Source: Escherichia coli
GTDB taxonomy: Bacteria > Pseudomonadota > Gammaproteobacteria > Enterobacterales > Enterobacteriaceae
Assembly (NCBI RefSeq): GCF_003018255.1
Contig: NZ_CP027440.1
Reading direction: 5' to 3' (one strand)
Length of the DNA: 64,000 nucleotides
The notes under the pieces were generated by a model. The model was not told where the DNA came from, made no database searches, and saw only the letters and a program-made list of their open reading frames with translations. Positions 3,176 through 33,688 of the stretch are shown here, in pieces; positions within the stretch are counted from its first letter, which is position 1; every line of letters starts with the position of its first letter. The translations under genes were made by a program, and so were the position numbers.

Positions 3176-3204
3176 AAAAAGCCCCGCAACGTGTTGCGGG
3201 GCTT
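3176..3204 (-). terminator. Intrinsic terminator downstream of rplU-rpmA
   Basis: Hairpin AAAGCCCCGCAAC-GTGTTGCGGGGCTTT followed on the minus strand by TTTTTACATT. Confidence 0.75.
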
Positions 3205-3230
3205 TCATCCGTTACCGGGACGCGAAAAAC

Positions 3231-29555: not shown

Positions 29556-30986
<1,431 letters not shown>

Positions 30987-31168
30987 GCCTGTCCCAGCGC
31001 CGCCTCCTCAGAAAAGAGTCGGCGCTGAAATTCTCCTTTCTTTCTGGAAAGCGCCTCGCATAATCTGAAGAAAACCAATGTAATACGCTCATCTGGATTG
31101 TTACCGGTAGATGCCCGGCGTATAGCTGATTCCATTATTCAACGCAGCGCCATATAAAGGGACAGATA

Positions 31169-32296
31169 ATGGAATCGCTCTCAGAGAGAACCTCAACAGG
31201 CTACCAGCAAATCCACGACGGTATTATTCACCTGGTCGATAGCGCCCGGACGGAAACGGTACGTAGCGTTAACGCGCTGATGACCGCGACATACTGGGAA
31301 ATTGGCCGACGAATTGTCGAATTTGAACAAGGTGGCGAGGCCAGGGCTGCGTATGGTGCGCAGCTAATCAAGCGACTATCAAAGGATTTAAGTCTAAGGT
31401 ATAAGCGTGGGTTCTCTGCAAAAAACTTACGCCAAATGAGGCTTTTTTACCTCTTTTTTCAACATGTTGAAATTCGCCAGACAGTGTCTGGCGAATTAAC
31501 ACCATTGGGAATTCCGCAGACACCATCTGCAGAATTCCCATCGGCAAAGATTTGGCAGACGCTGTCTGCCAAATCTTTCCCCCTGCCCTGGTCCACCTAC
31601 GTCCGTTTACTTTCCGTTAAAAACCCTGATGCCCGCAGCTTTTATGAAAAAGAGACGCTCCGCTGTGGTTGGTCTGTCCGCCAGCTAGAGCGGCAAATTA
31701 CGACCCAATTTTATGAGCGAACACTACTGTCACATGACAAATCAGCCATGCTGCAACAACACGCTCCTGCCGAGATGCATATTCTTCCGCAACAGGCGAT
31801 ACGCGATCCCTTTGTGCTCGAATTTCTGGAGTTGAAAGATGAATACTCAGAATCTGATTTTGAGGAGGCGCTGATCAACCACCTGATGGATTTCATGCTG
31901 GAACTTGGGGATGATTTTGCCTTTGTTGGTCGGCAGCGAAGGTTACGCATTGATGACAACTGGTTTCGGGTCGATCTGCTGTTTTTCCACCGCCGTTTAC
32001 GCTGCCTGCTAATCGTCGATCTAAAAGTGGGCAAATTCAGCTATAGCGATGCCGGACAGATGAATATGTATCTCAACTACGCCAAAGAGCACTGGACACT
32101 ACCGGATGAAAATCCGCCCATCGGTCTGGTTCTCTGTGCAGAGAAAGGAGCCGGCGAAGCGCATTATGCACTGGCTGGTTTGCCTAACACCGTTCTGGCG
32201 AGTGAATATAAGATGCAACTACCTGATGAAAAACGACTCGCGGATGAACTCGTTCGAACACAGGCGGTGTTAGAGGAAGGCTATAGACGCCGTTAA
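31169..32296 (+). CDS. yhcG: DUF1016 (YhcG-like) protein with predicted C-terminal PD-(D/E)XK nuclease fold
   Basis: 375 aa, MESLSERTSTGYQQIHDGIIHLVDSARTE...; sits directly after gltD with only a 182-bp spacer. Confidence 0.85.
   Translation: MESLSERTSTGYQQIHDGIIHLVDSARTETVRSVNALMTATYWEIGRRIVEFEQGGEARAAYGAQLIKRLSKDLSLRYKRGFSAKNLRQMRLFYLFFQHVEIRQTVSGELTPLGIPQTPSAEFPSAKIWQTLSAKSFPLPWSTYVRLLSVKNPDARSFYEKETLRCGWSVRQLERQITTQFYERTLLSHDKSAMLQQHAPAEMHILPQQAIRDPFVLEFLELKDEYSESDFEEALINHLMDFMLELGDDFAFVGRQRRLRIDDNWFRVDLLFFHRRLRCLLIVDLKVGKFSYSDAGQMNMYLNYAKEHWTLPDENPPIGLVLCAEKGAGEAHYALAGLPNTVLASEYKMQLPDEKRLADELVRTQAVLEEGYRRR
31471..31578. repeat. Three consecutive palindromes with CAGACA/TGTCTG cores inside the yhcG coding sequence
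   Basis: 31471-31497 AATTCGCCAGACA-G-TGTCTGGCGAATT (13-bp arms, perfect); 31509-31539 GGAATTCCGCAGAC-ACC-ATCTGCAGAATTCC (imperfect); 31546-31578 AAAGATTTGGCAGAC-GCT-GTCTGCCAAATCTTT (15-bp arms, perfect). Read directly from the sequence. Confidence 0.85.
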
Positions 32297-32311
32297 TTTC
32301 AGCGGTTTCGA

Positions 32312-32336
32312 ATTCTCCAGACACTGTCTGGAGAAT
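32312..32336. repeat. Fourth copy of the same palindrome family, 16 bp after the yhcG stop, between convergent yhcG and yhcH
   Basis: ATTCTCCAGACA-C-TGTCTGGAGAAT, a perfect 12-bp-arm palindrome closely similar to the copy at 31471-31497; no flanking T-run, so not a classical intrinsic terminator. Confidence 0.85.
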
Positions 32337-32355
32337 CTTTAAAACGAACTAAGTT

Positions 32356-33688
<1,333 letters not shown>

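Follow-up and report, generated by a model that had tools for sequence, protein, structure and literature searches.

Several described bacterial systems associate short inverted repeats with genes, and each shares some features with the element reported here, a near-perfect palindrome within the coding sequence of yhcG, a gene of the YhcG/DUF1016 nuclease family. The element came to light in a stretch of 64,000 nucleotides of Escherichia coli DNA (contig NZ_CP027440.1 of assembly GCF_003018255.1; hereafter the window), in which three palindromes lie inside yhcG and a fourth lies just beyond its stop codon. The attC sites of integrons likewise conserve structure rather than sequence and act as folded single strands, and, like the fourth palindrome of the window, they are located directly after the stop codon of an open reading frame (ORF). 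However, attC sites are 57-141 bp long, imperfect and extragenic, carry extrahelical bases and GTTRRRY/RYYYAAC cores, and depend on IntI, whereas the yhcG element is a near-perfect 12+1+12 inverted repeat that resides within an ORF at a fixed codon and has no integrase. Direct reading of the four window copies and the sequence beside them revealed no R''/R' cores (RYYYAAC ... GTTRRRY), and the arms span only 12-15 bp.

Palindromic DNA that is carried within ORFs and translated as a tolerated extra peptide is also known from the Rickettsia palindromic elements, but these are dispersed, mobile repeats of ~100-150 bp that occupy many unrelated genes and are missing from orthologues; the yhcG element is confined to one gene family, occurs in every member and is ancestral. 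The repetitive extragenic palindromes (REP), their bacterial interspersed mosaic elements (BIME) and the REP-associated tyrosine transposases (RAYT) offer a further parallel, in that short hairpin palindromes are tied to a nuclease-type gene and are recognized on single-stranded DNA. REP sequences, however, are extragenic, reach hundreds of copies per genome and are served by HUH enzymes, whereas the yhcG palindrome is intragenic, is present in one to five copies at one locus and accompanies a PD-(D/E)XK protein. Symmetric protein-binding sites also occur in or near coding sequences, as with the internal operators lac O2 in lacZ and gal OI in galE, and in I-TevI autorepression the homing endonuclease occupies a site close to its own gene and leaves it uncut. 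Such sites are read as duplex sequence and lack arm covariation across phyla, whereas the tandem yhcG copies differ in sequence and are each self-complementary.

Three further systems invite comparison. Conversion of one arm at the quasi-palindrome hotspots of templated mutation in E. coli could explain double changes without intermediates, but this is a mutational process at fortuitous imperfect repeats and cannot alone explain universal retention. The frameshift-stimulating stems of dnaX and the IS3 family are stable, conserved stems within coding sequence, but they need a slippery heptamer 5-9 nt upstream, and a programmed -1 frameshift signal was rejected for yhcG because an in-frame X XXY YYZ heptamer is present in 0 of 82 distinct sequences. 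In type III toxin-antitoxin systems (ToxIN-like), the RNA repeats lie upstream of the toxin ORF behind a terminator; the yhcG repeats lie within the ORF and are translated, and many family members have a single copy, so this candidate was also set aside.

The Palindrome Is a Family-Wide Feature of YhcG/DUF1016 Genes

In its typical form, the element is a 25-bp inverted repeat (12+1+12), ATTnnCCAGACA-N-TGTCTGGnnAAT, located in the segment encoding the DUF1016_N domain at a fixed codon, six codons 5' of the W in an S/P-W-S/T-H motif. Approximately 150 YhcG/DUF1016 genes with 27-97% identity were sampled from at least 10 phyla and from viral contigs, and all of them carry a 12+1+12 palindrome at the homologous codon. 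Genome contigs, with one genome per species, contributed 80 loci (Enterobacteriaceae, Burkholderiales, Pseudomonas, Planctomycetota, Acidobacteria and Ignavibacteria) whose products are 55-97% identical to YhcG; in each of the 80, the palindrome has arms of 10-19 bp and occupies the equivalent place, near query residues 99-102. Equally, each of 12 plasmid genes, at only 27-40% identity, has a palindrome at residues 94-111. These plasmids are hosted by Fusobacterium, Glaesserella, Methylomonas, Serratia, Enterobacter, Rhodococcus, Frigoriglobus, Leptolyngbya, Thiospirochaeta, Legionella, Hymenobacter and Rickettsia, with phyla that include Fusobacteriota, Actinomycetota, Cyanobacteriota, Bacteroidota, Spirochaetota and Planctomycetota, and several of the genes are wedged into bacteriophage exclusion (BREX), type I restriction-modification or tra operons. 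The cores of the plasmid palindromes are unrelated in sequence, as exemplified by GTTGCGCAACAG-G-CTGTTGCGCAAC, AATTATGCCACAG-T-CTGTGGCACAATT and CAATTGTCGTGAC-GCT-GTCACGACAATTG.

Genes on viral contigs (28-60% identity) conform to the same pattern: 48 of 55 distinct genes have the palindrome in the standard frame, with its axis six codons 5' of the W in SW[ST]H, and the other seven still form 10-11 of the 12 pairs. The axis falls on codon position 1 in all 91 of 91 genome and plasmid loci. At least 10 of 12 pairs are formed at the site in 83 of 85 distinct genes, compared with 9 of 66,098 other centres in the same genes. It is thus essentially certain that the palindrome is an intrinsic, ancestral and family-wide feature of these nuclease genes, which the defence-system database PADLOC groups as PDC-S02. 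A first-pass annotation of the window, made from its sequence, had raised the possibility of a small palindromic element domesticated into the ORF, which is not borne out given the fixed codon occupied throughout the family. It had also proposed that the palindromy is more likely coincidental should all orthologues share the segment, with no palindromic DNA signal outside E. coli and no further occurrence of the motif in the genome; the opposite is seen, with orthologues and remote homologues keeping the segment, the palindrome and covariation between its arms.

Additional copies accompany the conserved palindrome in some lineages. Tandem copies are spaced by 48 nt in 20 genes, by 39 and 36 nt in E. 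coli alleles and by 42 nt in a metagenome-assembled genome of Ignavibacteria, and in some distant members a further copy lies within the ORF at a distance of 32-36 codons from the main one (L087 and L150, 108 nt; L097, 105 nt; L086, 96 nt). Copies of a gene's own palindrome are also found outside the standard position: 45-68 nt upstream of the start codon in L089, 36 nt after the start in another reading frame in L128 and L129, and overlapping the stop codon in L175, where a separate, true terminator follows. Such external copies arose independently in several lineages. A copy 24 nt before the start of L084 has an E. coli-like core that differs from the gene's own internal palindrome, and L099 is a gene fragment that starts at the palindromes. 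Flanking copies of the kind that would systematically delimit a cassette were seen in a few lineages only. In the Glaesserella parasuis plasmid (L085), inverted pairs of GCCGTCTGA at 259-291 and 1430-1454 flank the DUF1016 gene; this sequence resembles the Neisseria DNA uptake sequence.

Loci of Burkholderiales, Pseudomonas and Xanthomonadales (L019-L081) have YhcG homologues that are 96-99% identical across genera and have thus spread recently on a mobile element. Hairpins at -31 (GGCGGCGGGG..CCCCGCCGCC) and +43 (CCGCGCTTCG..CGAATCGCGG) are shared within this group, and many of its genes contain a second in-ORF palindrome, GCCTTGTCC-AA-GGACAAGGC, at residue 183 that all other family members lack. 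This latter palindrome was considered and rejected as a second universal element, as it is clade-specific and partly driven by the peptide, and its restriction to one clade indicates that the gene is not palindrome-rich in general.

Selection Acts on the Nucleic Acid

Among 113 distinct 33-mers centred on the axis, 1,149 of the 1,243 cells at positions 2-12 are Watson-Crick paired (92%), with pairing per position of 93-100% in the 59 genome and plasmid sequences and 80-99% in all 113. Pairing falls to 18-58% at positions 13-16, which defines sharp 12-bp boundaries for the element. In a 35-sequence alignment, 94.3% of cells are paired, compared with 68.4% after shuffling and 24-42% when partners are slid, and changes on both sides (double compensatory changes) are evident in 11 of the 12 pairs (covariation score 0.644 versus 0.157 for shuffled alignments). 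When synonymous codons were resampled from each gene's own usage, with the peptide kept, 5.85 of 12 pairs formed on average versus 11.1 observed (p <= 0.018 for each of 46 distinct sequences).

Individual genes illustrate the same tendency. In the homologue L073, ACGCGACA is complementary to TGTCGCGT, and one of its changes, a synonymous TCT>TCG, is matched by the partner base. Among proteins that are 96-98% identical, the forms CCCAGACA/TGTCTGGG (ISQTLSGK) and CCGAGACA/TGTCTCGG (ISETLSRK) alternate without intermediates. Two viral-contig genes (L125 and L126) keep GAATTCGCCAGACAGTGTCTGACGAATC in another frame, in which it is read as EFARQCLTN. Taken together, the covariation, the codon shuffles and the change of frame show that selection acts on the nucleic acid, and selection for arm-arm pairing overrides codon preference and partly dictates the encoded peptide. 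The peptide does keep a hydrophobic-x-Q-x-hydrophobic pattern and forms a helix in the structural model, but an explanation by peptide alone is excluded by the codon shuffling and the frame-shifted variants. The earlier impression that the palindromes look functional rather than coincidental is supported. Within the papers searched, full-text queries on palindromes in DUF1016, yhcG, COG4804 or PDC-S02 and on intragenic palindromes returned no earlier description. The core finding, a coding-sequence palindrome that is family-wide and maintained by covariation, is essentially certain and, on these searches, previously undescribed.

Four Copies of the Element in the Window

The features of the window are collected in Table 1. 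A covariance model of the element identifies just four sites in the 64 kb at E <= 1e-3, and these coincide with the palindromes located by a repeat finder, so the grouping of the four into one family in the first-pass annotation is confirmed, as are the uninterrupted reading frame across the three internal copies and the peptides quoted for them (RQTVSGE, PQTPSAE and WQTLSAK). The four palindromes are copies of one element, far above chance; the sequence CAGACNNNGTCTG occurs three times, where 0.04 occurrences would be expected in 64 kb. The next match to the covariance model, at 3176-3207 (E = 0.12), is an ordinary GC-rich, terminator-like hairpin (AAAAAGCCCCGCAACGTGTTGCGGGGCTTT) and is unrelated.

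Table 1. Coordinates of yhcG, its palindromes and neighbouring features in the window
Feature	Position	Strand	Basis
gltD, upstream neighbour (context)	29568..30986	+	ORF list and annotation
yhcG coding sequence, 375 aa	31169..32296	+	intact ORF and RefSeq annotation, Pfam, PADLOC
Hypervariable patch between E. coli yhcG alleles	31407..31586	+	sliding identity versus L005, protein alignment
Tandem array, three 39-nt (13-codon) units, one palindrome each	31457..31574	+	repeat family D1, spacing 39, 39
Palindrome copy 1, AATTCGCCAGACA-G-TGTCTGGCGAATT, 13+1+13 perfect	31471-31483/31485-31497	.	repeat finder; encodes EIRQTVSGEL
Palindrome copy 2, TGGGAATTCCGCAGA-CACCA-TCTGCAGAATTCCCA, one mismatch	31506..31540 (core 31510-31536)	.	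repeat finder and fold; encodes GIPQTPSAEF
Palindrome copy 3, 18-nt arms, 94%	31543-31560/31564-31581	.	repeat finder, fold
Post-stop stretch in frame with yhcG	32297..32359	+	translation: 20-residue peptide with motif of internal units
Palindrome copy 4, ATTCTCCAGACA-C-TGTCTGGAGAAT, 12+1+12 perfect	32312-32323/32325-32336	.	repeat finder; between convergent yhcG and nanQ
nanQ (yhcH), convergent neighbour (context)	32356..32820	-	ORF list and annotation

Copy 1 folds as DNA with -13.7 kcal/mol (z -7.8) and scores 44.5 bits in the covariance model. Copy 2 scores 21-28 bits and has an equivalent in the related locus L018. Copy 3, whose core is a perfect 15+3+15 repeat at 31546-31578 (AAAGATTTGGCAGAC-GCT-GTCTGCCAAATCTTT), lies directly 5' of the PW/SW motif and is, by protein alignment, the positional homologue of the single copy in other members; its peptide, KIWQTLSAKSF, is a short helix (residues 126-136) in the AlphaFold model. 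Copy 4 was placed correctly in the first-pass annotation, though it begins 15 nt rather than 16 nt beyond the yhcG stop. RNA folding, which had been suggested as a check, gives a very stable structure for the array (31440-31600, single strand, -67.8 kcal/mol, z = -9.95), and single palindrome units folded as DNA single strands have z scores of -5.6 to -8.2. A scan of 30500-33000 with Rfam 15 on both strands returned no match up to E = 1.

Variation at the yhcG Locus among E. coli Strains

The array is of variable length in E. coli. Alleles of 349, 362 and 375 residues correspond to one, two and three units, another allele class has different units, and rare deletion variants of yhcG start inside the array. 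In the alignment to DUF1016_N, 166 YhcG residues cover 136 model positions, which indicates extra material in the E. coli protein, and units 1-2 (residues 97-125) form a low-confidence, disordered loop in the AlphaFold model. Two of the three internal copies are thus a lineage-specific amplification. The view that the entire segment is an insertion relative to the family consensus accordingly stands for the two extra units and fails for the remaining copy, which is ancestral and family-wide. A 56-nt query around copy 4 matched 5,371 of 5,426 complete E. coli genomes, at a median of two places in each and nowhere but at the yhcG locus, so the suggestion of a dispersed repeat is contradicted.

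Between E. coli alleles, a hypervariable patch with 53-77% DNA identity, compared with 90-100% over most of the remaining gene, stops at the array. Two allele classes, NLRQMR..FYLFFQ and NLWQFK..FYICFQ, are each found in both E. coli and Salmonella, which suggests either an old polymorphism or exchange of the patch.

Copy 4 looks like a duplicated internal unit because the peptide encoded after the stop repeats the internal motif: the translation of these 63 nt matches the internal FQRIEILQTLSAE of other alleles. A read-through allele is known (P0023, 391 aa), and in strain E69 (L005) copy 4 is identical to internal unit 2 over 30 nt except for the centre base. Copy 4 is confined to the genus Escherichia (L003, L005, L014 and L018) and is not found in Citrobacter, Salmonella, Kluyvera or their relatives; the gltD-yhcG(-nanQ) synteny is itself ancestral in Enterobacteriaceae. 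Between K-12 and the window, copy 4 differs by a compensatory pair (TGCAG..CTGCA versus TCCAG..CTGGA). The tails of this copy read CTTTAAAAC and TCGAAACC on opposite strands, and a role as an intrinsic terminator was rejected because a consensus scan calls neither strand and no T-run follows the stem.

Palindromes also mark larger rearrangements of the gltD-nanQ interval. K-12-type strains (L003, 684-711) have a fifth palindrome, GAATTCGCCAGACTGTGTCTGGCGAATC, 13 nt beyond the gltD stop, where it marks the left edge of an inserted gltF-yhcADEF fimbrial-like island; it is missing from the window and from other Enterobacteriaceae. Nissle 1917 (L001, 2475-2541) has neither yhcG nor the gltF-yhcF island and retains a lone palindrome, AATTCGCCAGACAGTGTCTGGCGAATT, between the convergent gltD and nanQ genes. 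The left flank of this palindrome is that of the K-12 post-gltD copy and its right flank is that of the post-stop copy 4. This is the arrangement that a deletion by recombination between these two copies would leave, and it accounts for Nissle and other B2-type strains. The Nissle-type junction is matched by 948 genomes over at least 80% of its length. In strain EC09 (L002, 1953-2431), ~480 nt of foreign DNA takes the place of the 3' part of yhcG, starting directly after the third palindrome. The replacement DNA holds a 101-aa ORF annotated as 'transposase' (WP_000639208.1).

The YhcG Protein and Its Gene Family

RefSeq annotation identifies the gene of the window as E. coli yhcG, flanked by gltD and nanQ/yhcH. 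Its product has the composition that defines the YhcG/DUF1016 family, namely DUF1016_N (residues 19-184; PF17761, 3.5e-42) followed by the YhcG_C PD-(D/E)XK nuclease domain (residues 208-360; PF06250, 1.6e-56). NCBIfam has no family for YhcG, and a sequence search of the PDB returned no relevant match. By structure comparison, the nuclease domain of the YhcG model is nearest to the fold of NucS/EndoMS, followed by Can2/Card1, NucC and Bax1. An earlier profile analysis (PMC1189080) had put the YhcG nuclease domain close to YraN and the Holliday-junction resolvases of archaea. Enzymes of these kinds act on branched or distorted DNA.

A phmmer search at E <= 1e-3 detected 24,775 cluster representatives (50% identity), which makes this a large family, and its genes are wedged into operons such as hsdM/hsdS, pglX/pglZ and traW/traU. 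In PADLOC, YhcG matches PDC-S02, a candidate single-gene phage defence (PDLC04807, 3e-136, residues 8-370). Many of the PDC-S02 profile hidden Markov models are N-terminal fragments that end at residues ~100-111, and many remote phmmer matches to YhcG are broken in two stretches around residues 100-140. Both observations indicate that the region of the palindrome is where truncated sequences and broken alignments concentrate. In K-12, a stationary-phase antisense or divergent RNA, G0-10703, is reported to overlap the 5' untranslated region of yhcG by 128 bp (PMC7967276); it does not reach the palindromes.

Nature of the Selected Structure

The tandem copies of the window differ from one another at arm positions 6-9 (CGCC/GGCG, CCGC/GCAG and TGGC/GCCA), and similar within-gene differences, with self-complementarity kept, are present in four other homologues (L030, L039, L064 and L080). 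Copies that differ and yet remain self-complementary point to hairpin or cruciform pairing rather than to a single duplex recognition sequence. Among the 1,243 cells analysed, the non-Watson-Crick combinations are G.T (11), A.C (26) and others (57), counts that are small and possibly shaped by coding constraints. An excess of A.C on the coding strand equals G.U on the antisense strand, and may be a coding artefact or hint at a structure on the antisense strand. The apparent lack of tolerance for G.U, the symmetry that extends to a 1-nt axis and the existence of lone extragenic copies argue, moderately, for DNA (or both strands) over an mRNA stem.

The favoured explanation, to which we give a probability of roughly 45%, is that selection maintains a hairpin or cruciform in the DNA, as opposed to a duplex operator or an ordinary mRNA stem, and that this structure serves as a cis-site handled by the gene's own NucS/Hjc-like nuclease. 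Such a hairpin or cruciform would be able to form on either strand and would be bound or cut by a structure-specific nuclease, most plausibly the gene's own PD-(D/E)XK product, which resembles NucS/EndoMS and Hjc. The site could thereby couple the gene to its own product through autoregulation or self-recognition and, as a side effect, might act as a hotspot of duplication, deletion and patch exchange resembling gene conversion. Hotspot behaviour of this kind would fit the copy-number alleles, the array deletions, the edge of the hypervariable patch, the EC09 replacement and the B2 junction.

Several points weigh against this explanation. The steps from a paired structure to DNA, and from DNA to recognition by YhcG, are ones that we infer, and arms of 12 bp are short for cruciform extrusion in vivo. 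The G.U argument draws on few mismatches that coding constraints could have distorted. The external copies near start or stop codons that repeat a gene's own sequence (L089, L128, L129, L175 and Escherichia) would also fit a sequence-specific binder. In the widely transferred clade of Burkholderiales type, residues 83 and 85 of the protein vary in perfect linkage with the type of palindrome, which could reflect co-evolution of a reader with its site rather than recognition of structure only; the patch and the linkage data fit both this possibility and an exchange resembling gene conversion that is bordered by the palindrome. Finally, one PDC-S02 representative gave no protection against phages T4, T5 and T7 in E. 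coli B (bioRxiv 10.1101/2024.09.26.614923).

The main rival, which seems possible though on balance unlikely, is an mRNA hairpin in the yhcG transcript that controls a potentially toxic nuclease, be it through cleavage by RNase III or another enzyme, mRNA stability, pausing of polymerase or ribosome, or setting apart the folding of the N-terminal region. RNA stems are classically recognized by strong covariation, the computed RNA fold of the array is very stable, the element is always transcribed within the ORF, and the external copies are located in what are likely to be 5' or 3' untranslated regions or gene borders. However, G.U seems no better tolerated than A.C (11 versus 26), and pairing continues up to the 1-nt axis, with position 2 paired in 99% of cases, a degree of closure that an RNA loop could not use. 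In addition, lone copies without the ORF persist between convergent genes, as in Nissle, and the element has no Rfam match, U-run or slippery heptamer (0/82).

A bolder form of the hairpin/cruciform explanation, which we consider speculative and rather doubtful, is that YhcG/DUF1016 genes are modules of a gene plus a DNA hairpin, in which the extruded palindrome would be the cis substrate or sensor of the nuclease, switching it or starting gene conversion. Extrusion might occur, for example, upon entry of single-stranded DNA, under replication stress or through phage-induced supercoiling, and gene conversion could conceivably diversify the adjacent hypervariable patch (residues ~83-135).

Another possibility, to which we attach little probability, is a duplex operator bound by a dimeric, sequence-specific protein, most likely the helical N-terminal domain of YhcG, for autoregulation or looping. 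Extra copies of a gene's own sequence recur near start or stop codons in the independent lineages listed above, and external copies match the internal palindrome in L005, L089, L128, L129 and L175. Moreover, a variable patch of the protein (residues 83-110) is linked to palindrome type, and the outer ATT/AAT and inner ACA/TGT are both conserved. Against such an operator, tandem copies differ at positions 6-9 and are still self-complementary at these variable positions, a pairing for which a duplex reader has no need; the promoter-proximal copy is sporadic, whereas the internal copy is universal; and sites only 60 nt apart would in any case be linked, which covers residues 83 and 85.

It is very improbable that the palindrome is a recombination or mobility site, whether att-like or itself mobile, by which yhcG or its 3' half moves as a cassette. 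Palindromes do border structural variants in E. coli (the K-12 arrangement with one palindrome after gltD and another after yhcG, the single palindrome in Nissle, and the L002 gene with its 3' half swapped at the third palindrome), many operons have a DUF1016 gene wedged into them, and attC sites offer a precedent for conserving structure over sequence. Yet the homologous codon is occupied in every member, so that the palindrome is inherited with the gene rather than inserted; the motif is not dispersed, and flanking copies are missing in most lineages. Genes between hsdM and hsdS overlap their neighbours, so that flanking sites could not be accommodated; tyrosine recombinases need more than a 1-3-nt spacer; and neither an attC core nor an associated recombinase is present at the E. 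coli locus. Programmed inversion was likewise rejected, as no inverted arrangement was seen and a paper that includes DUF1016 among the neighbours of inversion targets does not name it as a target.

That the palindrome has no function, and is either self-perpetuating through intrastrand template switching (quasi-palindrome correction) or a mere consequence of the peptide that it encodes, hardly seems credible: double switches without intermediates among 96-98% identical genes and in E. coli copy 4 are what one-step templated conversion gives, and the hydrophobic-x-Q-x-hydrophobic pattern and its helix are kept, but conservation is ~100% across phyla despite different cores and has sharp 12-bp boundaries, codon shuffles exclude a peptide-only cause, the DNA is kept upon a change of frame, lone copies are kept outside the ORF, and the switches travel as a patch, which indicates recombination rather than repeated templated mutation.

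Implications for the YhcG/DUF1016 Family

The YhcG/DUF1016 proteins constitute a large orphan family whose genes are typically encountered in defence islands, in restriction-modification and BREX operons, and on plasmids, conjugative elements and phages. A nucleic-acid element kept inside their coding sequence over at least 10 phyla, and constraining the protein, is a rare case of dual coding. In E. coli, the element accounts for several pangenome features of the gltD-nanQ interval: alleles that differ in copy number, the hypervariable patch and the scar left by the B2 deletion. For annotators, it is a warning that gene truncations and breaks in profiles and alignments cluster near the palindrome. 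Breaking the pairing by silent changes, or restoring it by compensatory ones, gives a concrete experimental handle on the element. Should the structure prove to be the cis-target of the nuclease, it would represent a new principle coupling a defence or selfish nuclease to its gene. If YhcG/DUF1016 genes were indeed modules of gene plus hairpin, they would embody a previously unknown form of site-directed diversification or self-recognition in a defence-island nuclease.

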